Below are positions 5,090-25,724 of a stretch of DNA of 33,721 bases, in pieces (position 1 is the first letter of the stretch; every line of letters starts with the position of its first letter). The stretch comes from Deinococcales bacterium (lineage in GTDB: Bacteria; Deinococcota; Deinococci; Deinococcales; JAAFIG01): the NCBI GenBank assembly GCA_043778225.1, contig JAYWGM010000033.1, positions 1 through 33,721 on the forward strand, in the 5' to 3' direction. The translations under genes and the position numbers were made by a program. The notes beneath the pieces were generated by a model. The model was not told where the DNA came from. It searched no databases and worked only from the letters and a program-made list of their open reading frames with translations.

Positions 5090-6113
5090 ATAACGGGAAA
5101 ATTCTGTTCGCCCATTGCTTGGGGTCGGTCGCTTCGGCACGTACCCGCATTTCCCAGTGCAAATGTGGCGCGGTGCTAAAACCAGTGTTACCAACCTTAC
5201 CAATCAGTTGCCCTTTTTTAACCACTTGCCCGACTTTGACCAAAATCTGGCTTTGATGAAAGTACAAGCTGACCACCCCAGCCCCGTGGTTAATGCCACT
5301 TAATCCACCACGAATCGGGTAAAAACCAGCCACCTCAACCACCCCGTCGTTGGTCGCATAAATCGGGTCGCCCATTTTTCCAGCCAAGTCTAAGCCATAG
5401 TGATAATTCACAACATCGTCTTTTTTATACAGCCGAGCTTGGGCAAAAGGACTGGTAAAAACCATCGGGCGTGGGTAAGCAAAAGTTTTATTCCATAAAC
5501 GCGGTGTGGAAATCGATTTTCTGTGGGCTGCATCTAAAATCGTACGTTCTCGAGTGCGGTTAGCATCGGTCAGGGTAGACAAAACAGCTTGGCTCATAAA
5601 AACATTCTGAACCGCTTGTGGGTCTGGCAGTAACTTGAGGCTCGAGTTAATCACTTCGCCGCCAAGGTTGGCTTGAATTGCCACAATTTTTGGTTTTGTC
5701 CCCAACAATTCGCGCCCAATGCCAACCCAATCGTTGCTATCTTGGGTCATGACCAGTTCTTCTTTTCCCCAAAAAACAACTGGTCTACCCGCCACCACGC
5801 CACGCAAGCGAATCAGTACAGGGTCGCCCGGAATGGCAGACTCACGGTGCGTCAGGCTCGAGCCAGCCCCAATTCCCTTGACGGTTGTCAGTGTAAAGCG
5901 ACTCGAGCTTGGTGGGTTTTCTGGCACATCTAAGACTTGTCCAACCCGAATTTCATTGGTTGTTAGGTTATTTAAGCGCTTTAACTCATCTGCCGAAATA
6001 CCATACTGCTTGGCAATACTAAAGAGTGTGTCGCCGCTTTGTACGGTATACGACCCCGCCAATGCCAAAAGGCTCGAGACAAGCAAAAAAACAATCAGCC
6101 AAGGTTTTTTCAT
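5088..6113 (-). CDS. LysM + M23 family peptidoglycan endopeptidase
   Basis: Signal peptide, LysM YTVQSGDTLFSIA, M23 motifs HYGLD and PHLHWE. Confidence 0.93.
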   Translation of the reverse strand: MKKPWLIVFLLVSSLLALAGSYTVQSGDTLFSIAKQYGISADELKRLNNLTTNEIRVGQVLDVPENPPSSSRFTLTTVKGIGAGSSLTHRESAIPGDPVLIRLRGVVAGRPVVFWGKEELVMTQDSNDWVGIGRELLGTKPKIVAIQANLGGEVINSSLKLLPDPQAVQNVFMSQAVLSTLTDANRTRERTILDAAHRKSISTPRLWNKTFAYPRPMVFTSPFAQARLYKKDDVVNYHYGLDLAGKMGDPIYATNDGVVEVAGFYPIRGGLSGINHGAGVVSLYFHQSQILVKVGQVVKKGQLIGKVGNTGFSTAPHLHWEMRVRAEATDPKQWANRIFPL

Positions 6114-6159
6114 TCACTTACCAGTCTAACCTTTTACTGGGTTTTTAAGTGCAACACAT

Positions 6160-7029
6160 TTATTGCTTTAAGCGCAACCAGCGCACCATCCGCCCGAGTT
6201 TTTGGCTTTGGTAGGCAATTTTGACCCATTGCTCGGTTTCAATCGTCACCGTCTCGATTTTTCCAGCAATTTCGAGAACCAAGACCGTATCGCCACGAAT
6301 GATGTAGTTAGTGGTTTTGGCGCTTTCTTTGGGGCTGGAGTACAAGAACATTTTTGCGGGAACGGTGCGCTTGACTGGAATCGAATTGCCATCTTTATCG
6401 GTGTCGTTGAGGCTACTTTGTATTAAATCCCCAGCTTTATTAAAAATTTGGGTTTGCTCGAGGTACGAGTCGGTCTTATCAAAGACCAATAAATTGCGAT
6501 AATTCGAGCTGCGGTATAACCAAGGCTTATTGTCCGAAAATTTATAGGCAAAGCCATACCAAAACGGTCCACTGCGTGAATTACCAAAAAGAATTTTATT
6601 TTTCGGGTCAAACATAGGGTTGCTGACTTGGAAATCTTTACCCTCGAGTTTCACCAATTGCTTTTGGCGCGGCTCGTAACGCCAAACGTCATAAAAGTTA
6701 TTGACCCCGCCATAGCCAATCCCGCTTGGCAGACCGACATCATTAAAGCCATCAAAATCAAAATCCTCGACCAGCACATCGCCTTGGGCGGGTGAACCCG
6801 AATCGTCGATCGTCTCGAGGGCAAACGTTTGGGTTTTAACTCCAATCTGCACCTCGAGTTTTTTACTGGCTCGAGAGGCGTTTAATAAAATCGTGCCACC
6901 ACGGCTCGAGAGCGGCGCACTGACCTTAAAATCCTTGGTTAAAGAATAACTGTGTTTGGCATCGCGCTGGGCTATTGCCAAAGAAAGAACACCAAAAACC
7001 GCCACTGCACCAAGGAATCTCGAGATCAT
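6160..7029 (-). CDS. Secreted XAC2610-related protein with an SH3-like C-terminus
   Basis: Signal peptide; VEDFDFDGFND Ca-loop and N-x-FYDVW; C-terminal LYSSP...GDTVLVL...WVKI pattern. Confidence 0.55.
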   Translation of the reverse strand: MISRFLGAVAVFGVLSLAIAQRDAKHSYSLTKDFKVSAPLSSRGGTILLNASRASKKLEVQIGVKTQTFALETIDDSGSPAQGDVLVEDFDFDGFNDVGLPSGIGYGGVNNFYDVWRYEPRQKQLVKLEGKDFQVSNPMFDPKNKILFGNSRSGPFWYGFAYKFSDNKPWLYRSSNYRNLLVFDKTDSYLEQTQIFNKAGDLIQSSLNDTDKDGNSIPVKRTVPAKMFLYSSPKESAKTTNYIIRGDTVLVLEIAGKIETVTIETEQWVKIAYQSQKLGRMVRWLRLKQ

Positions 7030-7041
7030 GGAGATAGTATA

Positions 7042-7107
7042 AGGGAAAAAGGGAAAAAGTTAAAAGTAAAAGCTGCTCTTACTTTTAACCTTTTCTACTT
7101 TTCCCCT
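7042..7107. repeat. A/G-rich imperfect tandem repeat with inverted pyrimidine arm
   Basis: AGGGAAAAAGGGAAAAAGTTAAAAGTAA...TTACTTTTAACCTTTTCTACTTTTCCCCT. Confidence 0.75.
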
Positions 7108-7111
7108 CGCT

Positions 7112-8533
7112 CTACACCTGTTCGACACGAATTAAATTGGTTGTTCCAGCTTGTCCAAAAGGGACACCCGCAACAATCACGATTTTTCCGCCCTTGGCAA
7201 CAATGCCACTTTGCAGGGCTGCGGCTCGAGCCAACTCGACCATGTGGTCGGTGTCTTTAATGTCCATGGCAATTTCGGTGGTGACATTGCTGGCAAGCAC
7301 AAGCTGGTTTTTTGCCAGTTCGGTGCGGGTTAAAGCAATAATTGGCACACCTGGACGGTTGCGCGATAAACGCCATAAGCTGCTGCCAGAGTCGGTAAAG
7401 CAAACCAATGGGGCTTGAATTGTGCCTGCCACTTCGCAAGCCGCCAAGGCAATCGCGTCTTGGGTGGTGTGCAAGGCTTCAGGATGCCCCGTAATTGTTT
7501 TTTGATAGGCGGCGGAGCTTTCGGTGGTGCGGGCAATTTTATCCATCATCGAAACGGCTTCGACTGGGTATTTGCCACTGGCGCTCTCGGCAGACAGCAT
7601 GACTGCATCTGTGCCGTCAAGAATCGCGTTTGCCACATCCGAGGCTTCGGCGCGGGTCGGGCGTGGGTTATCAATCATGCTTTCGAGCATTTGGGTGGCA
7701 GTCACCACAGGTTTACCTGCATCACGGCACATTTGAATAATCATTTTTTGAATCATCGGTACTTTTTCGGGTTCGAGTTCTACGCCTAAATCACCTCGAG
7801 CCACCATCACACCATCCACAATCTCGAGAATCCGTGCAAATTCGCTGGGTTCAACCGCGCTGGGCTTTTCGATTTTTGCCATCAGTTTGGCTTTAGAACC
7901 CGCACGGCGCAGGTGTTCTTTGGCAATCAAGACATCTTCGCGGTTGCGAACAAAGCTCATGGCGACCCAATCCACCCCAAGTTCGACTCCGGTTTTGATG
8001 TCTTCGATGTCTTTATCGGTCACGGCTGGGGTGGACAGGTTTGCATCGGGTACATTGATGCCCTTTTTGTCTTTGAGGATGCCGCCGTAAATCACCACGG
8101 TGTGAATATCGTTGCCGACAATTTTTTCGACCCGTAAACGCAAATTGCCGTCGTCAAGCAGCAAATCCTGCCCGGCTGTGACATCTCGAGGTAATTCTTT
8201 GTAGGTGGTCGAGACGCGCTCCTCGTTGCCAACCACATCATCCGAGGTGATGATAAATTTTTGCCCCTCGAGCAATTCGATTTGCCCATGCTCAAAGCGC
8301 TCGGTGCGAATTTTGGGACCTTGCAAATCTTGTAAAATAGCGATTGCCACCCCTTTTTCTTTGGCAACACGGCGAATTGTATCGACTCGAGCCGCCATTT
8401 CGGCAGGGTCTTTGAGGTGCGAGAAATTGAGGCGGGTGACATTTAAGCCTGCATCAATCAGTTTACCAATCATTTCGGGGCTGCTCGAGGCGGGTCCGAT
8501 TGTTCCAACAATTTTTGTCCGACGTGGATTCAT
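7112..8533 (-). CDS. pyk: Pyruvate kinase
   Basis: RRTKIVGTIGP, RLNFSH, DLQGPKIR, MVARGDLG, TATQMLESM; start at ATG 8533. Confidence 0.98.
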   Translation of the reverse strand: MNPRRTKIVGTIGPASSSPEMIGKLIDAGLNVTRLNFSHLKDPAEMAARVDTIRRVAKEKGVAIAILQDLQGPKIRTERFEHGQIELLEGQKFIITSDDVVGNEERVSTTYKELPRDVTAGQDLLLDDGNLRLRVEKIVGNDIHTVVIYGGILKDKKGINVPDANLSTPAVTDKDIEDIKTGVELGVDWVAMSFVRNREDVLIAKEHLRRAGSKAKLMAKIEKPSAVEPSEFARILEIVDGVMVARGDLGVELEPEKVPMIQKMIIQMCRDAGKPVVTATQMLESMIDNPRPTRAEASDVANAILDGTDAVMLSAESASGKYPVEAVSMMDKIARTTESSAAYQKTITGHPEALHTTQDAIALAACEVAGTIQAPLVCFTDSGSSLWRLSRNRPGVPIIALTRTELAKNQLVLASNVTTEIAMDIKDTDHMVELARAAALQSGIVAKGGKIVIVAGVPFGQAGTTNLIRVEQV

Positions 8534-8641: not shown

Positions 8642-10012
<1,371 letters not shown>

Positions 10013-10223: not shown

Positions 10224-11527
10224 ATGCTCATTCAATTCACTACTGGCAACTTTCGTTCAATTGCTAGTGATATTAATTTTTCAATGGAAGTAGCACCCAC
10301 CTCAAAACGGGCTAAAAAGATGCGTGTTGATATTGAAAATCAATTGAGATACCAAATACAAAATTACTGAAATCTGCCGTTTTGTATGGTGCAAATGCAA
10401 GTGGAAAAAGTAATTTTGTACAAGCAATTCGTTTTATGCGAAATTTTGTTTTGCGTTCCTCTGCAATGCAAATAGGCGACAACATTGATGTGTCAGCATT
10501 TCGTTTTATTGAAGGTTTTCAAGAGAAACCATCATCATTTGAAATTATTTTTTTTGCATCTGACCAAAAGACTTATCGCTATGGTTTTAGCGTTACCAAC
10601 GAAAAAGTGATTGAAGAATGGCTTTACGTCAAAAGTACATCAAGAGAAATTTGCTTATTTGAAAGGAGAGAGCAAAAATTTGATGTTAAAAAGAAATTTA
10701 TTGAAGGTGAAAATATAGCAAACAAAACTCGAGACAACGCCTTATTTTTACCGACAGTTGCCCAATTTAACGGAGAAGTCTCGAGACTAATTATAGACTG
10801 GTTTAGGAGAATTCAAATTATAGACGGAACTGCTGACCAAGACCAAAGTAACTCGGCTGCCCAAGCAATCACAGATGAGAAACTAAAGAGAAAAGTCAGT
10901 GACTTTATAAAAAACTTAGACCTTTCAATCCAAGATGTCACTGTCGAAAAAAGTTCTAATGTAATCGATGGAGATAGTGAAGGGTCACAAATACTCTCTT
11001 TTATACAACTCACAACAAAATTTTTCCGAGAATCAACAAAAGAGAGGACTAGACTTCAGGTAATGACACGACACAACAAATTTTCATCGGATGGCAACTT
11101 GATTGGTTCTGAGACGGTTGATTTAACTGAATACGAATCTGAGGGAACAAAAAAACTATTTAATTTTGCACCCGCTTTTCTCGAGGGCTTAGAAAATCAA
11201 AGAATTTTCATCATAGATGAACTTGATGCAAAGCTGCACCCGCTACTGACGATTGCACTTATCAAAATGTTCCACTCAAATACCGGCTCAGGACATTGCT
11301 CACAACTGGTTTTTACAACTCATGACACAAACTTACTGACATCTGAGTTGTTTAGGCGTGACCAAATTTGGTTTGCTGAAAAAGACAAATTTGGGGCAAC
11401 CCAAATGTATTCGCTTTATGATTTCAAGCCTCAAGGCAAAAATGTTCGTACCGATGAGTTGTACGAAAAAAACTATCTTATTGGTAAATATGGAGCAATT
11501 CCGTACCTTGGAAACTTGAGGTTTTAA
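10224..11527 (+). pseudogene. AAA_21 ABC-type ATPase (RloA/AbiLi-like), split by a 1-nt frameshift
   Basis: GAGG RBS and MLIQFTTGNFRSI N-terminus stop at 10368-10370; the other frame gives LLKSAVLYGANASGKSN (Walker A), ESEGT, IIDELD, FTTHD. Confidence 0.8.
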
Positions 11528-11528
11528 T

Positions 11529-12137
11529 ATGGCTCGCCACTCAAAACCCAAGTTTTCTCAAGGTCGCCCTGCACCTACCAAAACCACGAAAAAAACGTTC
11601 TTAATCTTTTGCGAAGGTGAAAAAACCGAGCCAGATTATTTTAGGGCTTTTCGGATACGCGCAGATGTTAGAAAATACAGAGTCGAGGGAACGGGGTTTA
11701 ATACTGAAAGTCTTGTCAGAGATGTAATTGAACAAATAGAAAGTGGTTACTATGGTGAATACGATGAGGTTTGGTGTGTTTTTGACAAAGATAGCTTCAA
11801 GCCCAACCAATTTAATACAGCAATTCAAATGGCGCTTTCAAACAAAATGAAAGCTGCATACAGTAACGAGGCGTTTGAACTTTGGTATCTTTTGCATTTT
11901 GAATACTGTGAATCTGGCTTGAATCGAGCGACCTATAAAAAGCGACTGACAAAATATTTTGGTAAAGAATACAAAAAGAACGACCCCAAGATGTATGAAA
12001 CACTGCTACCAAATCAGGCTACGGCTATCAGAAATGCAAAAAGATTAGCCCAAATGCACATTTCAAATTCACCCGCCGACCACAATCCTGTCACATTGGT
12101 GTATCAGTTGGTTGAATCATTAAACAGTCCCGAATAG
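11529..12137 (+). CDS. rloB: RloB-family (AbiLii-like, TOPRIM-like) protein
   Basis: LIFCEGEKTEPDYF, VWCVFDKD, SNEAFELWYLLHF, NPVT motifs; 1 nt after the ATPase. Confidence 0.9.
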   Translation: MARHSKPKFSQGRPAPTKTTKKTFLIFCEGEKTEPDYFRAFRIRADVRKYRVEGTGFNTESLVRDVIEQIESGYYGEYDEVWCVFDKDSFKPNQFNTAIQMALSNKMKAAYSNEAFELWYLLHFEYCESGLNRATYKKRLTKYFGKEYKKNDPKMYETLLPNQATAIRNAKRLAQMHISNSPADHNPVTLVYQLVESLNSPE

Positions 12138-16106: not shown

Positions 16107-17105
16107 ATGTCCGAAGCTCGAGTACCACTTTTTCCTGATTACCAAAGTCCAGCGTTTCGATTTGCTGATATTTTTGCGGGAATTGGTGGAATGCGACTTG
16201 GTTTTGAAGCGGTTGGCGGGCAGTGCGTTTTTTCTTCAGAATGGGATGTGCATTCGCAAAAAACGTACTTTGCAAATCATGCTGATTTTCCAAAGGGCGA
16301 TATTACACTTGTTCCTTCGAGTGAAATTCCTAATTTTGATGTGCTACTGGCAGGATTTCCGTGTCAGCCTTTTAGCAGTATTGGTTTGCGTCAAGGTTTT
16401 TTACATCAGACCCAAGGCACTTTGTTCTATGAAATTGCGCGGATTCTGCGCGATAAGAAACCACTGGCTTTTCTGCTTGAGAATGTTGAAGGGCTAGTCA
16501 CACATAACAACGGTGAGACCATGAGCATTATTCTCGAGACCCTGCGCGAACTTGGGTATGCTGTTTCGTACCAAGTGCTGGATGCTTCGCAATTTGGTGT
16601 GCCTCAGAAACGCAAACGCATTTATATTGTTGGACATAAACTCGAGAATGCAGAGTTTGCCTTTCCAAAAGGCACACGTTCAGATGTTTTTATTGGACAA
16701 TTTATTGAATCGAATATCGAAGGGTACAGTATTTCTGAGCATTTGCAAAAAACATATATTTTCAAAAAAGACGATGGTAAACCTGCGATAGTTAGCCCAG
16801 ACTCGAGGATTCAGATTAAAACCCAAGTCGCTTCGTATCATAAAATTCAGCGCTTAACAGGAACATTTGTGCGTGATGGGAAGACTGGCTTGCGCTTACT
16901 GACCGAAAACGAATGCAAAGCGATTATGGGATTCCCGCCGCATTTTATATTCCCAGTCTCGAGAACCCAAATGTACCGTCAGATAGGAAATTCGGTGACT
17001 ATACCTGTGATAGTCGAAATTGCTAAACAGATGTTTGGTAAAATTATTCAAGTACATTTTAATGAAAAACGTAGAAGTAAAGCCTATTCACGACATTTAG
17101 CTTAA
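16107..17105 (+). CDS. C5-cytosine DNA methyltransferase
   Basis: Motifs I FAGIGG, IV GFPCQPFS, VI ENV, VIII QKRKRIY, X RQIGNSV. Confidence 0.96.
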   Translation: MSEARVPLFPDYQSPAFRFADIFAGIGGMRLGFEAVGGQCVFSSEWDVHSQKTYFANHADFPKGDITLVPSSEIPNFDVLLAGFPCQPFSSIGLRQGFLHQTQGTLFYEIARILRDKKPLAFLLENVEGLVTHNNGETMSIILETLRELGYAVSYQVLDASQFGVPQKRKRIYIVGHKLENAEFAFPKGTRSDVFIGQFIESNIEGYSISEHLQKTYIFKKDDGKPAIVSPDSRIQIKTQVASYHKIQRLTGTFVRDGKTGLRLLTENECKAIMGFPPHFIFPVSRTQMYRQIGNSVTIPVIVEIAKQMFGKIIQVHFNEKRRSKAYSRHLA

Positions 17106-17136
17106 AAATGTTGGTAAAGATTATTGAGGAGAAAAT

Positions 17137-17736
17137 ATGGCAGATAACCTAGGCAAAAGAGCAATTAAGCAAGTTGATCTTGTAAAAGAATATTTCATGA
17201 GTCATCCAAATGAAGATATAAAACATAGCGAAGTGGTTGGCTGGTTACAGCAAACTTTTAAGGAAAGAACAGGTGGACAATTTGCAGATCCAGATAGACA
17301 AATTAGAACTTTGAGTCAACAAGGATTTCTAATAAAGAAGGCTAAGGGTGTCTATTGTTATGATCCTGAAGCAGTTCATTCACGCGAATTAGAGTATTTT
17401 TCTGATGAGCAAAAAAGAATAATTAAAGAACGTGATGGTTTTAAGTGTGTCATTTGTGGAAAAGGTGTTAAAGACGGAATTGAACTTCACGTTGATCATA
17501 TTAAACCCAAAGAACTAGGTGGACAAGCTATAATTGAAAACGGTCAAACATTATGTGCACAACACAATTTTATGAAAAAGACTTTAAAGCAAACTGAGAC
17601 AGGGAAAAAAATGTTTTTACGATTATATGAACTTGCAAAATCGGAAGGTGATACGAATTTACAAGATTTTTGTAAAGCAATTCTTTCAACTTTTGAAACC
17701 CATGGGATTAATGGACATATTGAGTGGAAACCATAA
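17137..17736 (+). CDS. HNH endonuclease, probable type II restriction partner
   Basis: RDGFKCVICG...HVDHIKP...GG...N.QTLC..HN; GAGGAG RBS; directly after the methyltransferase; AT-rich. Confidence 0.88.
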   Translation: MADNLGKRAIKQVDLVKEYFMSHPNEDIKHSEVVGWLQQTFKERTGGQFADPDRQIRTLSQQGFLIKKAKGVYCYDPEAVHSRELEYFSDEQKRIIKERDGFKCVICGKGVKDGIELHVDHIKPKELGGQAIIENGQTLCAQHNFMKKTLKQTETGKKMFLRLYELAKSEGDTNLQDFCKAILSTFETHGINGHIEWKP

Positions 17737-19997: not shown

Positions 19998-22900
19998 TTA
20001 GTTACCTGTAATGTTAATGTCGTCAATACCAACAAATTCGTCATTTCCGACAGCATTGGTAGTCATAATTCGTAGTTGTACTGTTGATTGTCCAAGCGCT
20101 CCAGCAGGTAAAGCAACACTGATGTTTGTTACTTGAGTAGCAGCATTGGCAGTCGTTGCATCAGCAATATATCCAGAGGCAATGTTGGTAAATGCTCCAC
20201 TGTTGCCGACACGATAGTGAAGCGCGACTTGTTGTACAGCATCATCAGCAGAGCCATCTATGTCGCGTACACTATAAGCAACATTGCCATTGCTACAGCT
20301 AAGGGTATTGATTGTTATAAGCAGATACGGCGCGTCGGCTGTTCCCGAGCCAGCTAGACCAACAACAGGGTTGGCAATTGCAAATTCTGCCACACCACCA
20401 GTGTTAAAGACGCTTGGGTCGGTCTGATTAGCGTTGACATCTAGCACGCCAGGAGTATCATCAGCCAATAGAGTTCGTGGGTCTGTACCTGTGCCAGCTG
20501 TGATGTTATCTCCACGATACCCCACAATATTGGATACGCCACTCCAATCGTCATTGGCTGTAATTAAGCCAGCATTTGACCAATTTTGCGTAAATGGTGT
20601 GACTAAAGCACAAACTGAAGCCGTAACCGTAATCGCACTCGAGCCACTAAGCGTTCCGGCATTAGCAGTGATGGTTGCACTACCTACGGCAGCGCCCGAA
20701 ACCAAACCAGTGGTATTGACTGTAGCAGCCACAGAACCACCATTTGACCAAGTAATGCTTGGGGTGGCACAACCGCTCGGTAAAAATGCTGCGGTCAGTT
20801 GTTGTGTAGCCCCAACGGTAATGCTGGCGGCGTTTGGCGTGACACTCAGGCTTGTACAAACAGGCACGACAACAATGCTAAAGCTGCTGCTCGAGGCAGT
20901 GGTTGTGCCGCTTGTGCCTTTGACGGTCAGAGGATACGTTCCAGCCGCCACAGTGTTGTCTAAATCTAGGGTCAGGGTACTGGTGTTGCCTGCGGTGTTG
21001 TTTGGCGAAAAGCTGCCAGTCACGCCACTTGGCGCGCCCTCTAGGGTCAGGGTAATTGGGTCTACAAAGCTGGTGCGGTTAATTGTGATGGTGCTGCTTG
21101 AGGAGGCAGCAATACCAGTCGTGAAACTCGAGCTACCAAGTGCGCCAGCACTGACGGTAAAACCCGGGGTAGCCGTTCCACCAAGGTTTAAGCCAACCAC
21201 CACTGGGTCGTGGTCGCTCGAGCGGTACGCATCGGCGGCATAAAGACTGGTGACCTGACCTGTTGATTTGAACTCAGTGTTGTAGTCCAAGATTATTGGC
21301 TCATCAGCGTTAATGTGGAGTTTTTCTGCACCAGCCACTTGTGCTGTTAAGGTGGCACTTCCTAAAGCATGGTCAAGGCTGCCCCATGTACCATCAAAGA
21401 CATAGGAATAACTGCTGCTTGGGTTGAGGTTGGTATAGCCAGCCGTCTCGAGTGTGGTCAGGGGTTGTTCTTTGTAGTAGGCGTTAAAGTCGCCCATCAG
21501 GAGGTAATCTGGGTCGGTTGTGCCAGTTGGGTTGGTGGCTAACCAGTTTTTGAGGTCGGTGGCATTCTGGGTACGCAGTAAGTTGGATAGCCCTTGCCCG
21601 TCACCTGAATCCGTGTTACCTGCACCACTGCCCGAGCCTTTAGACTTAAAGTGGTTCATCACAGCCGTAAAAACTTGGCTGTTGCTGATTTGGGTAAAGG
21701 TTGCGGCGACGGGGCTACGCCCTGTCCCACTCGAGCCAAAGGAGGAATATGTGGTTGTGTTTGGACTGGCGATTGTACCGAGCGTGACTGTACTTGGCTT
21801 ATAGATAAAGTCAACTTTAATTGCATCGCAGCCGTAACCGTTGGCTGGAGCGCTGGCGGCGGCGTATGTACCAGCACTTGTGGCGGTATTGAGTGCAGCA
21901 ACCAGGTCATTGATAGCCGTTGTGCCGTTGTTTTGCATTTCGATGACACCAAGCACATCGGGGTTAATTGCCAAAATAGCCTGTACAATTTTGTCTTTTT
22001 GGCGGGTAAATTCTTGGGCTGTATCCGCACCTCGAGCCGCTATGGTGTTGCTGCAACCAGCGCTGACAGTTGCAAAACTAGCTTGGTTGAGGGTTGTAAA
22101 AAAGTTCAAGACATTAAAGCTGGCAACTCGCAGCGTTCCGCCGACCGTGGGCGCAGTCGGACGAGCATTGACAGCTTGAAAATTAATTGCGGCTGTAGGC
22201 TGGATTCGGTATCCCTCGAACCGTTCGTCTAAAATCCCACTCAGATTGGCAACTGTGTCACCGCCGCGCAGTGTATTTGTTGCCGACAACGGATTACCGC
22301 CACGACCAAGCAAAATAGGGTCTGGGTTTTGTATCGAACGACCATCGTCCAGATAAATTTTGCGCTTGGCGATTTCGGCTAAATACGTCGCATAACCACT
22401 GACGCTCGGGGTGTTAAACTGGGTGTAGTTATCAAGCCTTGCATCTGTTCCGGTCGCATTGGATGCACCATCAGAAGACAGCACCACTTGTCCAAAACGC
22501 CCCAACTGAAAAATCTCGGTGACGGTCATGGTGTCTGGAATGCTGACCCGCATCCCTTCGTATTTCTCGAGGTCGGCAACGCTACTGACAGGGAAGTTGA
22601 CTTTAATGGCTTCGGGCAATTGGCGTGTGCCGCAGTTTTGCACCAAGGTCGGGCTGGTCAGTTGGGTCAAAGAACTGTTGACTGTCACGCCACCCGAAGC
22701 TGCACTCGAGGTAAATTCGGTTGGTGTGCCAGAGACCCGAATAAAATCGCCAGCCGCAACATCAGGAAAACTCGAGCCAAACACAAGAATGCCATCTGAC
22801 GTATTGGTATTACCATCGCCGTAGCGGTCTTGTAAGTAAAAGCCACTAAGGTTGGTGGTGGTGGTGATTGAGTTGACAGTTGTACTGACATCTTGAAAAT

Positions 22901-23924
22901 CGCCAGTCACCACACCTTCAACCGCGACCGTGCCTGTGGCGGCGGTGGTCGAACCTGAACCTTGAATTTGTGGAATTGTAGTGCTGACGCTACCCGTGTT
23001 GCAACTTGGCTCGAGTAAAAGCGCTGGCGTGGTGCTAATTTTAGCGTTACTCAAACGAATTTCACCTACCGTGGTATCGGTGTCTTGTCCAACTAAAACC
23101 ACTTGACTTGCTGCCAAGGCAGTGGCTCGAGCCGCCGCCGCCAGTGTGCTTTCTTCTGGGCTACGGCTGACTCGAGTATCGCTTTCGGTGGTAAGCACAA
23201 AAGTTGCCGAAAACCCGTAAGCAGTGTTGGCGCTGGCGCTTGGTATTTTATAGGCAACGGTCACTTGTCCTCGGTTGCAGTTGGCATCAGCAACGGTGTT
23301 GCAGTTGGCTGCGCCGATGGTGCGTCCGCCAGTTATTGCAAGGCTACGAGTTACAAATCCATACTCGAGTACACGGTCATTGCTCGAGATAATGCTGGCA
23401 GTTTGGGATTGGGTCTGGACTCCTGCTGCTTCGCTGGTTTGGAAAACTTGGAGGTCTTCACGTCCTGCCACAATACTCACTGTGCCATTGCCGCTCATGC
23501 CATGTGTGGGCAGTAAACTCTGGGCATTTTGAGCATCGTTGACATTGCCCCCAGCAAAATTAACAAGGTTCTTGATGGCTGTGCCACCTTTGTTATTGGC
23601 ACTTTGATGGTAGGCATAAAGAGTCAGGTTATTGAGGGCGGTGTTGGTCGTGTTGGTAAAAGCAAAAGTCCGCAGAATGTACTTAAAGTTGCTGTCGAAT
23701 GCAACTGAAGCGGCGGGTGTGACATTGGTATTAAATGAATCAAAAGCAACAACCGAATCTGGCTGAACTGTACTGATTTGCGGCGTAAGGCTGCCGCCAC
23801 CAAAAGACAATTCAACTGCACCAAAGGGTTTGACAGTTTGCACAGGCTTTTGTGGGGCAAGTTGGGTACAAGCGGTGATGATGGCTGAGGCAATCAAAGC
23901 CGTTAAAACTCGAGGCGTATTCAT
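19998..23924 (-). CDS. ExeM/NucH-family extracellular endonuclease lipoprotein with Ig-like domains
   Basis: Lipobox IITAC; OB fold (IPQIQG, GFYLQD, LEKYEGMRV); EEP domain (SFNVLNF, NHFKSK, GDFNAY, SLDH, SSDHDPV); Big_2-like LSVTP...ITVGATQQLTA. Confidence 0.92.
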   Translation of the reverse strand: MNTPRVLTALIASAIITACTQLAPQKPVQTVKPFGAVELSFGGGSLTPQISTVQPDSVVAFDSFNTNVTPAASVAFDSNFKYILRTFAFTNTTNTALNNLTLYAYHQSANNKGGTAIKNLVNFAGGNVNDAQNAQSLLPTHGMSGNGTVSIVAGREDLQVFQTSEAAGVQTQSQTASIISSNDRVLEYGFVTRSLAITGGRTIGAANCNTVADANCNRGQVTVAYKIPSASANTAYGFSATFVLTTESDTRVSRSPEESTLAAAARATALAASQVVLVGQDTDTTVGEIRLSNAKISTTPALLLEPSCNTGSVSTTIPQIQGSGSTTAATGTVAVEGVVTGDFQDVSTTVNSITTTTNLSGFYLQDRYGDGNTNTSDGILVFGSSFPDVAAGDFIRVSGTPTEFTSSAASGGVTVNSSLTQLTSPTLVQNCGTRQLPEAIKVNFPVSSVADLEKYEGMRVSIPDTMTVTEIFQLGRFGQVVLSSDGASNATGTDARLDNYTQFNTPSVSGYATYLAEIAKRKIYLDDGRSIQNPDPILLGRGGNPLSATNTLRGGDTVANLSGILDERFEGYRIQPTAAINFQAVNARPTAPTVGGTLRVASFNVLNFFTTLNQASFATVSAGCSNTIAARGADTAQEFTRQKDKIVQAILAINPDVLGVIEMQNNGTTAINDLVAALNTATSAGTYAAASAPANGYGCDAIKVDFIYKPSTVTLGTIASPNTTTYSSFGSSGTGRSPVAATFTQISNSQVFTAVMNHFKSKGSGSGAGNTDSGDGQGLSNLLRTQNATDLKNWLATNPTGTTDPDYLLMGDFNAYYKEQPLTTLETAGYTNLNPSSSYSYVFDGTWGSLDHALGSATLTAQVAGAEKLHINADEPIILDYNTEFKSTGQVTSLYAADAYRSSDHDPVVVGLNLGGTATPGFTVSAGALGSSSFTTGIAASSSSTITINRTSFVDPITLTLEGAPSGVTGSFSPNNTAGNTSTLTLDLDNTVAAGTYPLTVKGTSGTTTASSSSFSIVVVPVCTSLSVTPNAASITVGATQQLTAAFLPSGCATPSITWSNGGSVAATVNTTGLVSGAAVGSATITANAGTLSGSSAITVTASVCALVTPFTQNWSNAGLITANDDWSGVSNIVGYRGDNITAGTGTDPRTLLADDTPGVLDVNANQTDPSVFNTGGVAEFAIANPVVGLAGSGTADAPYLLITINTLSCSNGNVAYSVRDIDGSADDAVQQVALHYRVGNSGAFTNIASGYIADATTANAATQVTNISVALPAGALGQSTVQLRIMTTNAVGNDEFVGIDDINITGN

Positions 23925-24085
23925 GGTTGTTCCTCCAAAAAGTCGCCGCTCAATGTGTTGAATGGCGTGGTTACCCCTGTGCTAATGACCCAAGATTGAT
24001 GTTGCTCGAGTTTTGGTACGGTATAAGTCTTTTTGGCAGCCAAAACAAGCTGCACAGGGTCGGCTGTGTTTAATTTGGTATTCAT
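23921..24085 (-). CDS. Unannotated 54-aa peptide with YxxPxL leader-like motif
   Basis: AGGAG RBS at 24090-24094; MNTKLNTADPVQLVLAAKKTYTVPKLEQHQSWVISTGVTTPFNTLSGDFLEEQP; the stop overlaps the nuclease start (ATGA). Confidence 0.75.
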   Translation of the reverse strand: MNTKLNTADPVQLVLAAKKTYTVPKLEQHQSWVISTGVTTPFNTLSGDFLEEQP

Positions 24086-24159
24086 TTTTCTCCTAGATGG
24101 GTTGCCCCATACAGGCAGACTTATATCGGGCTTATGTCAGCCTAAGTTCAGTTCTCATC

Positions 24160-24223
24160 TTGTACCCGAAGCCAAGCCGATGTCGCTCCTCGAAGCCAAG
24201 CCGACGTTGTACCTCGAGCCAAG
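24160..24223. repeat. Three degenerate ~24-bp direct repeats
   Basis: CGAAGCCAAGCCGA at 24167 and 24191; CGAGCCAAG at 24215. Confidence 0.65.
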
Positions 24224-24234
24224 TAGAATGGCGT

Positions 24235-24486
24235 ATGGATTATCCAATCTCTGGCGTTTACGAACACCACAAAAGCACCCCAGAAGCCCGTAGGTATTAC
24301 CAAGTCTTGGGTTGTGCTAAACACACCGAAAGCGGCGAGGAATTGGTGGTTTACGTTCCGTTGTATGTCATCCCAGAACACACCGGGCTGCGTTTACAGG
24401 TACGACCAGTTGCCATGTTTCTCGAGCAAGTACAAAAAAATGGCGTTCTTGTGCCGCGTTTTGCCTATATTGGGGTAGCCTTGTAG
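24235..24486 (+). CDS. DUF1653-family protein
   Basis: G.Y.H.K...Y.V...A.HTES.E.LVVY..LY...RP..MF...V....PRF; TAGAAT 5 nt before ATG 24235. Confidence 0.8.
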   Translation: MDYPISGVYEHHKSTPEARRYYQVLGCAKHTESGEELVVYVPLYVIPEHTGLRLQVRPVAMFLEQVQKNGVLVPRFAYIGVAL

Positions 24487-24542
24487 GCTCGAGGTAACAC
24501 AAAGTCTGGTTTTCGTCGTAGACTGTATAAAAAGGGGGCTTT

Positions 24543-25724
24543 ATGACTCAACCCGCGCAGGAACTGACCATCGTTGAAATTCTCAAGTATTCCGTCGAGC
24601 GCAATGCTTCGGATATTATTCTCACGGCTGGATTGCCACCGCAGTACAAAGTACATGGTGAATGGGGCAATGGCGAGAACACCAACCCGCTGACCGCCCA
24701 AGAAACCCGCCGTTTGATGTACTCAATCATGAACGAAAAGCAACAGCGCAACTTCGAGGAAAAACGCGATATTGACTTGTCGTTTGCCTCAACTGGCATC
24801 GGCGGACGCTTTCGGGTCAATGTTTTTTTTCAGCGTGGCTCGGTCGGTGGGGTCTTGCGGCTGATTCCAACCAAGACCCGTCCAATCGAAGAGTTGGGTA
24901 TCCCCAAGGAAATTCTGATTCAAATCTCGAGCCTGCCGCGTGGTCTGGTGCTGGTGACCGGTCCGACAGGTTCGGGCAAAAGCACAACTTTGGCTTCGAT
25001 GATTGACTGGATTAACACCAACAAGAAAAAACACATTGTGACGATCGAAGACCCGGTAGAATTTGCCCATTCACACAAAAGCAGTATCGTCAATCAGCGC
25101 GAAATTGGACCAGACACCCAAGATTTCGAGATGGCGCTTAGGGCAGTTTTGCGCCAAGCCCCAGATGTGATTCTGGTTGGAGAGATGCGCGACTTTGAAA
25201 CGATTCGCAGTGCCGTCACGGCTGCCGAAACCGGACACTTGGTGATGGGAACATTGCACACCAACAGCGCCCCAGAAGCGATTGACCGTATTGTGGATGT
25301 TTTCCCCGAGGAACAACAAGAACAGATTCGAGTCCAGCTTGCCAACAACCTGAGCGCTATTGTGACCCAGCAAATGTTGCCCAAAATCAGTGGTGACGGG
25401 CGCTTGGTGGCTTACGAAATCATGATTGCCACGCCAGCCGTGCGAGCCTTAATCCGCGAAGGTAAATCCTACCAGTTGACCAGTGTGATTCAAACCGGTG
25501 CTTCGCTCGGAATGCTGACCATGGATGCTTGCCTTGCCGATATGTACAAAAAGAAAATGATCACTTACGAAGTTGGCGAATCTCGAGCCGTTGACCCCAA
25601 GGAATACACCCGTTTGGCTAAACTTGGCGAGACGCTGCCCGGGCAGCGTCCGGCGGTCGGGGCGCAACCTCAAGCCCCACAAGCCCAGCAACCCGCTTCG
25701 CCCAGTGGTTTTGGACGGCGCTAA
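24543..25724 (+). CDS. pilT: Type IV pilus retraction ATPase
   Basis: GPTGSGKSTT, TIEDPVE, LRQAPDVILVGEMRD, TLHTNS, AVRALIRE. Confidence 0.93.
   Translation: MTQPAQELTIVEILKYSVERNASDIILTAGLPPQYKVHGEWGNGENTNPLTAQETRRLMYSIMNEKQQRNFEEKRDIDLSFASTGIGGRFRVNVFFQRGSVGGVLRLIPTKTRPIEELGIPKEILIQISSLPRGLVLVTGPTGSGKSTTLASMIDWINTNKKKHIVTIEDPVEFAHSHKSSIVNQREIGPDTQDFEMALRAVLRQAPDVILVGEMRDFETIRSAVTAAETGHLVMGTLHTNSAPEAIDRIVDVFPEEQQEQIRVQLANNLSAIVTQQMLPKISGDGRLVAYEIMIATPAVRALIREGKSYQLTSVIQTGASLGMLTMDACLADMYKKKMITYEVGESRAVDPKEYTRLAKLGETLPGQRPAVGAQPQAPQAQQPASPSGFGRR

Follow-up and report, generated by a model that had tools for sequence, protein, structure and literature searches.

Lasso peptide precursors carry a leader in which the motif YxxPxL spans positions −17 to −12 and a Thr, rarely an Ile or Val, is found at −2 (PMC10368454). 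We describe here a 54-codon gene with a leader of this spacing from a Deinococcales genome. It lies on a stretch of 33,721 nucleotides (nt), contig JAYWGM010000033.1, which was analyzed as a whole and is called the window below, and it runs directly into the gene for a 1308-amino-acid (aa) nuclease lipoprotein. The gene belongs to a family for which pairing with lipoprotein genes is nearly universal, and its product is probably the precursor of a maturation pathway that is derived from lasso biosynthesis but has no cyclase.

The closest described system is that of the linear polyphosphorylated peptides (LPP) of Bacillota, encoded by lppA-K-B-S-D-N (Popov et al., Nat Commun 2026, PMC13381572). 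According to the main text of that report, the precursors have the motif YxxPxVLxHQxIxFETxxS and are cut after the Thr, and the Ser three residues past the Thr is polyphosphorylated by an HprK-like kinase with the help of a recognition element (RRE) for peptides that are made by ribosomes and modified after translation (RiPPs). The S3T change in LppA abolished phosphorylation. A Trp instead of the Tyr in the leader separates lasso from LPP pathways inside one cell. The LPP clusters are found in capsule and polysaccharide loci, and they are termed there Bacillota-restricted and of unknown role (PMC13381572). Two further systems combine a lasso-type leader with phosphorylation. The Bsf product of Bradymonas is a phosphorylated lasso peptide with split B1 and B2 proteins, in which an HprK-type kinase, assisted by B1, acts on Ser3 of BsfA (PMC10368454), and in the pseudomycoidin pathway, PsmN adds a hexose to the phosphate (PMC6993621).

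Results

The window genome is labelled G000; relatives carry G-numbers, and contigs carry C-numbers. The peptide gene and its partner are arranged as follows.

23921..24085, minus strand: gene for the 54-aa precursor-type peptide (minus-strand read and family profile matches).
24090..24094, minus strand: AGGAG ribosome-binding site of the peptide gene, 4 nt from the ATG at 24085-24083 (direct sequence read).
23921..23924, minus strand: ATGA overlap of the peptide TGA (23923-23921) with the lipoprotein ATG (23924-23922) (direct sequence read).
23932..23936, minus strand: GGAGG ribosome-binding site of the lipoprotein gene, within the last codons of the peptide and 7 nt from the lipoprotein ATG (direct sequence read).
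19998..23924, minus strand: gene for the 1308-aa lipoprotein, with a signal peptide and lipobox Cys19, an N-terminal domain (N-domain) at about aa 20-330, an ExeM/NucH region at aa 335-914, and Big_2 at aa 1024-1099.
22926..23867, minus strand: the N-domain, a beta-sandwich domain common to 22 lipoprotein paralogues of the genome (alignment A2 and predicted fold).

The minus-strand translation of the 54 codons is MNTKLNTADPVQLVLAAKKTYTVPKLEQHQSWVISTGVTTPFNTLSGDFLEEQP. The leader comprises approximately residues 18-37, with the pattern K-K-x-Y-x-x-P-x-L-E ... T-G, and the core and tail, residues 38-54, are VTTPFNTLSGDFLEEQP. Positions 1, 4, 6, and 16 of the lasso motif are occupied by Y21, P24, L26, and T36, and position 10 is Q. 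With G37 as −1, this corresponds to Y−17, P−14, L−12, T−2, and G−1. An initial annotation of this DNA had reported these motif positions, the AGGAG site, the ATGA overlap, and the GGAGG site inside the small open reading frame (ORF), and all of them are borne out by the minus-strand read. The first acidic residue of the core (VTTPFNTLSGD...) is at position 11 after the T-G junction. Pfam gives no family for the peptide, and the only NCBIfam match is lasso_cyano, with E = 0.11.

A profile, A1, was prepared from the alignment of nine paralogues in the same genome. It matches 13 frames of this genome at E < 1e-5 and finds 58 public proteins of 39-75 aa, all unnamed or 'hypothetical'. In the alignment of 58 family proteins from the public protein collection (A3), Y21, P24, and L26 are invariant (58/58 each). 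E27 is present in 57 of the 58 sequences, G37 in 56, and P41 and G43 in 55 each, followed by S39 (53/58) and T36 and T44 (51/58 each). The sole match of the family profile in the PDB is the 22-residue TfuA lasso leader, 6jx3_A, which is aligned from its start to the terminal TG; the match is weak, with E = 0.39. One paralogue, on contig C50, passes the NCBIfam model lasso_leader_L3 with 20.5 bits against a cut-off of 19. The nine paralogues have their first acid past the junction anywhere between positions 3 and 15, while a lasso ring requires Asp or Glu at 7-9.

When 61 related genomes were searched with the peptide, each of the 18 members of the window genome's own family (f1) gave small open frames, several per genome, and the reading frame is open in nearly all of the matches. 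G128 is the only genome outside f1 that is matched by A1 at E ≤ 0.01. Diverged peptides with the pattern Y..P.V...LG.W..VTLA.S.PIG, which had escaped A1 at this threshold, precede N-domain lipoproteins in the high-GC relatives G020 and G096. All 11 orthologue pairs compared between genomes of the genus have ratios of nonsynonymous to synonymous substitution rates (dN/dS) between 0.09 and 0.57. These pairs are of family members other than the window copy, which is outside the set because its nearest orthologue is too diverged (51% identity). Thus, the 54-codon ORF is a real gene of a multi-copy family under purifying selection. It is not a chance ORF, because it is one of 13 paralogues, the family has 58 public members with invariant residues, and dN/dS is below 0.6.

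The window copy is atypical in the second conserved block, where it has T39 for Ser (3/58), T40 for Leu (1/58), and N43 for Gly (1/58). Its orthologue in G013 also has Thr at residue 39, and the orthologue in G006 retains ISLPIGT. Elsewhere in the genome, at 13191-13373 of C60 (minus strand), a truncated 40-aa family member ends shortly past the junction, precedes a 68-aa membrane protein in place of a lipoprotein, and is possibly a decayed copy.

The coupling of the peptide to a lipoprotein gene extends to nearly the whole family. All 13 peptides found by A1 in the window genome lead into a lipoprotein gene. Each of the nine strongest paralogues is followed by a large ORF with a lipoprotein signal, and the start and stop overlap by 4-8 nt in eight of the nine. 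The four further matches likewise precede lipoprotein genes, and C104 holds a second pair. At 10367-10677 of C49 (minus strand), two tandem family peptides precede a single lipoprotein, and both have Ile or Val, not Thr, at −2, like the rare lasso leaders with these residues at that position (PMC10368454). At 41621-42480 of C75 (plus strand), the partner, whose start is overlapped by the family peptide, is a lipoprotein of 239 aa without the shared N-domain. Since this partner lacks the N-domain, the pairing is with lipoproteins as such and extends beyond the N-domain. Conversely, 12 of the 22 N-domain frames of the genome have their own upstream peptide, and the remainder are second or third in an operon or are peptide-free.

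In the loci fetched from relatives, there are 27 distinct peptide ORFs, 25 of which stand directly before an N-domain lipoprotein gene. One of the other two is cut by a contig end, and one (locus L047, in G013) is located behind, not before, an N-domain gene. The underlying table has 36 rows, including duplicates, and was scored by a distance rule and a manual check. Three of the 25 pairs were at first mis-scored by the rule because their frames open upstream of the true start, and these were verified by inspection. Six of the 36 rows are flagged as unpaired, and the itemised causes sum to seven (three artefacts, two duplicates, one contig end, and L047). The initial annotation had made its proposal depend on conserved small ORFs upstream of lipoprotein homologues and on purifying selection of the ORF. 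The former are present in the relatives, where 25 of the 26 assessable peptides are paired, and the latter is seen in the 11 orthologue pairs of other family members. We conclude that the peptide and lipoprotein genes are coupled, with an overlap of stop and start and predicted co-transcription. A search for longer proteins that carry the peptide domain, that is, fused forms, found none, but it was a weak search in which the candidates were crowded. The lipoprotein signals of the nine strongest paralogues' partners are of the Sec type, without twin arginines, and hitch-hiking on the twin-arginine (Tat) route was dropped for this reason. A double-glycine leader, as for peptidase-containing ATP-binding cassette (ABC) transporters (PCAT), was also considered and dropped because the hydrophobic spacing is unsuitable.

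The N-terminus of the window lipoprotein is MNTPRVLTALIASAIITAC, and it opens with a lipoprotein signal (...IITAC) that includes the lipobox Cys. The protein passes the NCBIfam model for ExeM/NucH extracellular endonucleases (NF033681) with 551.2 bits against a cut-off of 300, over residues 335-914, and its Pfam matches are Exo_endo_phos and Big_2. Orthologues of the nuclease lipoprotein are found in G006 (54% identity) and G013 (53%), and a family peptide precedes both. The N-domain, of about 330 residues, has no Pfam or NCBIfam family match. AlphaFold2, with a 28-row alignment, predicts a beta-sandwich with two helices (predicted local distance difference test score, pLDDT, 72.7; predicted template modelling score, pTM, 0.77). 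No structural relative of this model was found in the PDB by Foldseek at E ≤ 0.001. The best structural score in the wide VIA-align search, Z = 5.5 for VP37 of white spot syndrome virus (WSSV), reflects a generic beta-sandwich only, and the best score in the ESM Atlas, 0.84, was to unnamed clusters. A profile search with the N-domain gave 844 representative clusters of proteins with lengths of 226-1592 aa, in which the domain is always N-terminal. The C-terminal domains of the lipoproteins paired with the nine strongest paralogues vary and include nuclease, P-domain, DUF5122 propeller, FG-GAP, RCC1, LTD, and beta-helix. Within the order, the N-domain occurs in 16 of 18 genomes of f1, 21 of 36 of f3, 6 of 37 of f2, 1 of 36 of f5, and 0 of 23 of f4. 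A complex prediction for the N-domain (A2, aa 1-285) with the peptide (A3) gave a score of 0.03 against a mark of 0.32, from a run with no controls, which speaks neither for nor against binding.

Among the 35 window ORFs scanned, there is no match to the cyclase, PqqD, B2, or radical SAM families, as the initial annotation had stated. Candidate maturation enzymes are encoded on other contigs. C64 encodes a PqqD protein (Pfam, 60.7 bits) that matches TbiB1 (1.7e-7) and TfuB1 (5e-6) in the PDB. It is thus homologous to the B1 proteins of both of these true lasso pathways of Actinomycetota, represented by the fusilassin/fuscanodin TfuA-TfuB1 structure (6jx3) and by TbiB1 (5v1u). The stop codon of the C64 PqqD gene overlaps the start of a gene for a 297-aa P-loop, kinase-like protein. 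This protein is 32% identical (E = 1e-39) to a kinase-like protein encoded next to a family peptide in G128, which itself has a weak HprK_rel_A match. C44 encodes a 437-aa fusion, here called N-B2, of a PF14907 nucleotidyltransferase (NTP_transf_5) with a Transglut_core3 B2 peptidase domain. N-B2 passes the NCBIfam lasso B2 model (NF033537) with 47.6 bits against a cut-off of 33 and is surrounded by sugar-nucleotide and polysaccharide genes. A PF00733 search of the genome found no cyclase beside either the C64 or the C44 locus. Its Asn_synthase matches are only a weak one on C88 and the cyclase of a complete lasso cluster on a separate contig, C92, which has B2, B1, cyclase, and precursor. The C92 precursor has Trp in the motif (KVWVAPQLE), compared with Tyr in 58 of 58 family peptides.

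Three other genomes link these enzymes to the peptide. On a 12.4-kb contig of G128 (C148), genes for an alpha/beta hydrolase, PqqD, the kinase-like protein, a family peptide, an N-domain lipoprotein, and three tail-collar-domain proteins follow one another, and the opposite strand carries N-B2, an N-domain-only lipoprotein, and DUF6916. In G072, of f3, the order is GT2, peptide, N-domain lipoprotein, GT2, PqqD, kinase, N-B2, DUF1616, and two GT4. In G003, of the same genus as the window genome, the PqqD-kinase pair is 1.7 kb from a convergent lipoprotein-peptide pair. Among the scanned ORFs of the G128 and G072 clusters and the surroundings of the G003 cluster, there is no Asn-synthase-like cyclase and no S24/S26-type peptidase; no ABC-transporter family was found among the scanned ORFs at these three clusters either, and no genome-wide search for transporters was made. 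N-B2 lies amid polysaccharide genes in G000, G013, and G072. We also noted that, on the G128 contig (locus L057), the three tandem phage-tail-collar-domain proteins, at 6072-7634, come directly after the lipoprotein, and that the DUF6916 protein, at 9231-9527, comes after the N-domain-only lipoprotein.

The enzymes, the peptide, and the N-domain also show a joint distribution. In genus g7, the kinase and N-B2 are present in the same 17 of 35 genomes, and the N-domain is found in 16 of these 17 compared with 5 of the 18 others. In the f1 genomes G009, G010, and G012, the peptide, kinase, and N-B2 are jointly not found. G007, from the same genus as the window genome and 94% complete, has many N-domain genes and one peptide match, and the kinase and N-B2 were not found in it. 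None of the five N-domain lipoprotein genes sampled in G007 has an upstream peptide ORF. This genome reads as a joint loss of the peptide and the enzymes with retention of the lipoproteins. The genome search that the initial annotation had suggested, for RRE/PqqD, B2, and Asn-synthetase genes, has thus located PqqD on C64, N-B2 on C44, and a cyclase in the C92 cluster. Comparative evidence from C64 and C44 and from the clusters in G128, G072, and G003 supports its suggestion that the peptide is an orphan RiPP-like precursor which is processed in trans.

The DNA upstream of the peptide gene contains a repeat.

24167..24204, no strand: 14-nt direct repeat in two copies (CGAAGCCAAGCCGA on the plus strand), in the upstream intergenic region, with no further copy in the genome.

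It is a possible regulatory site. Several other modules have short tandem direct repeats of their own 60-110 nt 5' of the peptide start, with sequences that differ per module: about 25 nt in two to three copies at C89, 9 nt in two copies at C104, and 11 nt in two copies at C28 and C17 (ATAACGCCCAA / TATAACGGCAA). A consensus scan of 23800-24600 found 0 sigma-70-like promoter sites. Among sequencing runs, this DNA is contained in only two DNA runs, both from a single biofilm-metagenome study that is possibly its source, and in no listed RNA run. On the plus strand, the ORF at 24097-24486 (129 aa) has a DUF1653 match restricted to aa 53-123. Met47 (24235) is the probable true start of this gene; the divergent intergenic DNA between it and the peptide gene would then measure about 149 nt.

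The window has two other distinctive regions, both of low GC content. At 10382-12137 (plus strand), an island with a GC fraction of 0.35-0.38, against about 0.50 around it, encodes an AAA_21 ATPase (AbiEii/OLD-like) and then an RloB-like protein, a pair typical of defence islands. At 16107-17736 (plus strand), a stretch of 0.36-0.43 encodes a C-5 cytosine DNA methylase and an HNH endonuclease, which are likely a restriction-modification pair.

Discussion

We favor the proposal that the peptide is the precursor of a cyclase-less, lasso-derived maturation pathway, the Deinococcales counterpart of the LPP pathway of Bacillota, and we consider this somewhat likelier to be correct than not. In the proposed mechanism, the C64 PqqD protein would bind the YxxPxLE leader, and the kinase would phosphorylate the conserved hydroxyl residue just past the T-G junction, a position occupied by Ser in 53 of 58 members and by Thr39 in the window copy. 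The B2 domain would cut after T36-G37. The nucleotidyltransferase domain fused to it may add a sugar or a nucleotide to the phosphate, a sugar being suggested by analogy with PsmN (PMC6993621). Together, the linear, acidic product and its cognate lipoprotein would then act at the cell envelope.

The likeness to the LPP system, as presented in the main text of PMC13381572, extends over most of this pathway. Neither has a macrolactam cyclase, and both have a discrete PqqD protein, an HprK-like kinase (by weak matches in the present case), and a PF14907 nucleotidyltransferase. The residues Y, P, [VL], T, and S/T are shared at motif positions 1, 4, 6, 16, and 19. Both have several precursor genes, coexist with a lasso cluster of the W type, and have their enzymes in polysaccharide loci; the division between Trp in the lasso precursor and Tyr in the other precursors is also the same. 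There are differences as well. The middle of the LPP motif is not the same, and the window copy has Thr at the presumed Ser site; His at motif position 9 is present in 25 of the 58 members. The LPP leader peptidase is the SpI/SipW-like LppS, whereas here a lasso B2 domain is fused to the nucleotidyltransferase, and the MsbA-like exporter LppD has no counterpart in the annotated clusters. Finally, LPP is from Bacillota, while the present system is from Deinococcales and has at least 13 scattered precursor genes, each coupled to a lipoprotein gene. The words 'lipoprotein' and 'Deinococc' have 0 occurrences in the main text of PMC13381572, whose supplements could list hits outside Bacillota. New relative to that main text are the phylum, the fusion of N with B2, the scattering of the precursor genes, and their pairing with lipoproteins. 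Thus, the view of the initial annotation that no described system matches has to be divided: the maturation half resembles LPP, and the pairing with lipoproteins, which is absent from the LPP text, stands. Our literature search gave no report of lipoproteins paired with a lasso-type peptide, nor of the present system in Deinococcota.

Lasso systems share with the present one the leader spacing and the B1 (PqqD) and B2 proteins, which here are encoded in trans, but not the acidic residue at 7-9 or the clustered cyclase. With Bsf and pseudomycoidin, as described in PMC10368454 and PMC6993621, the common elements are YxxPxL at −17 to −12, Thr, Ile, or Val at −2, the kinase (K), the nucleotidyltransferase (N), and a B2 Cys peptidase. 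Unlike them, the Deinococcales system has no cyclase and no Asp or Glu at core positions 7-9, its N and B2 are fused, and its precursor is paired with a lipoprotein.

Several observations weigh against the LPP-like pathway that we propose. The window copy itself departs from the family, with T39, T40, and N43, at the presumed modification site. If the kinase is Ser-specific, like LppK in the main text of PMC13381572, this member, with Thr at residue 39, may be modified poorly or differently; it may be a poor substrate or may be drifting. The 297-aa kinase candidate of C64 matches the curated models weakly, and only ScmC at E = 1.8e-4. The enzymes are on contigs other than that of the peptide, so the link between them depends on the clusters of three other genomes and on the co-distribution. 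The genomes in the co-distribution are related and hence not independent, and the enzymes missing from G007, which is 94% complete, could fall in an assembly gap. No exporter was seen in the annotated clusters and no signal sequence in the peptide, which poses the problem of how a cytoplasmic product would meet an exported lipoprotein. N-domain lipoproteins also occur without the peptide or the enzyme set, in f2 genomes and in G007. Because such peptide-free N-domain lipoproteins exist, the peptide is not needed for the N-domain as such.

Could the peptide instead be an unmodified partner that binds its lipoprotein one to one, with the leader likeness convergent or irrelevant? A stoichiometric partner was the second suggestion of the initial annotation; it could, for example, be a chaperone that donates a strand to, or targets, the N-domain or the pre-lipoprotein. 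The start-stop overlap in eight of the nine strongest paralogues and the pairing in all 13 cases in the window genome and in 25 of the 26 copies that could be assessed in relatives are what would be expected of such a partner. The same is true of the diverged peptide that each lipoprotein has for itself and of the nuclease-peptide pair that is kept across two genera. However, the peptide has no signal peptide and the lipoproteins are of the Sec type, so the binding of a folded exported domain would require an export route that is not seen, and the C75 partner does not even have an N-domain. The strongest conservation is exactly at the lasso and LPP recognition and junction positions, and in three genomes the pair is clustered with genes for an RRE, a kinase, and B2. 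That fused peptide-lipoprotein forms were not found is weak evidence in the same direction. We regard an unmodified partner as unlikely. It is less likely still that the gene is a regulatory upstream ORF, whose translation, or the capture of its nascent leader by PqqD, sets lipoprotein output through termination and reinitiation, with no later role for the peptide. The ATGA overlap, the lipoprotein ribosome-binding site buried within the ORF, and the module-specific short tandem repeats upstream of several modules are consistent with such regulation. But purifying selection acts at the amino-acid level and includes the second block (S39, P41, G43, and T44), the lipoprotein gene has a strong GGAGG of its own, and the leader-dedicated kinase and peptidase imply a processed product and therefore argue against regulation alone.

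A true lasso precursor, processed in trans by the complete C92 cluster (B2, B1, C, and A), is very improbable. The presence of a full lasso cluster with its cyclase in the genome, the lasso-like leader spacing, and the paralogue that passes the NCBIfam lasso leader model speak for it. However, the first acidic residue of the core is at 11 here and at 3 to 15 in the nine paralogues rather than at the 7-9 required for the ring, and the C92 precursor uses Trp, not Tyr. No Asn-synthase-like cyclase was present among the ORFs scanned in the three peptide-containing clusters, and, besides the weak C88 match, the C92 cyclase is the sole Asn_synthase match of the genome. We therefore rejected a lasso peptide identity, on the grounds that the core has no Asp or Glu at 7-9 and that there is no linked cyclase. 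The probability that the peptide gene is a chance ORF in a divergent promoter region is negligible. It is short, under the usual gene-calling cut-offs, and it occupies much of the intergenic space, where the consensus scan gave no promoter-like site; this explanation is nevertheless refuted by the conservation in 58 members, with invariant residues, frames open in nearly all matches, and dN/dS below 0.6.

What would the product of the LPP-like pathway do? One answer, which we offer as doubtful, is that the peptide, once processed, phosphorylated, and possibly glycosylated, serves as a dedicated adaptor that docks on its own lipoprotein after export, usually on the N-domain, and ties surface enzymes or adhesins to the polysaccharide layer or marks them for display. 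An adaptor is consistent with the near-universal pairing, with the operon of N-B2 and an N-domain-only lipoprotein in G128, and with the polysaccharide loci in which the enzymes are encoded. If this is correct, it would be the first biological role for LPP-type peptides, and the peptide and lipoprotein would form a module of the cell surface, represented by a dozen or more cognate pairs per genome.

The proposed pathway would place a related, LPP-like system in a second phylum, with a different leader peptidase, when LPP itself has been known only since 2026 (PMC13381572). The analysis adds a family of hundreds of mostly unnamed small genes, together with an N-domain family of 844 clusters that has no Pfam or NCBIfam entry. 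The fixed pairing with lipoproteins gives a handle on the purpose of linear phosphopeptides, since it points to lipoproteins of the envelope and perhaps to the polysaccharide layer.

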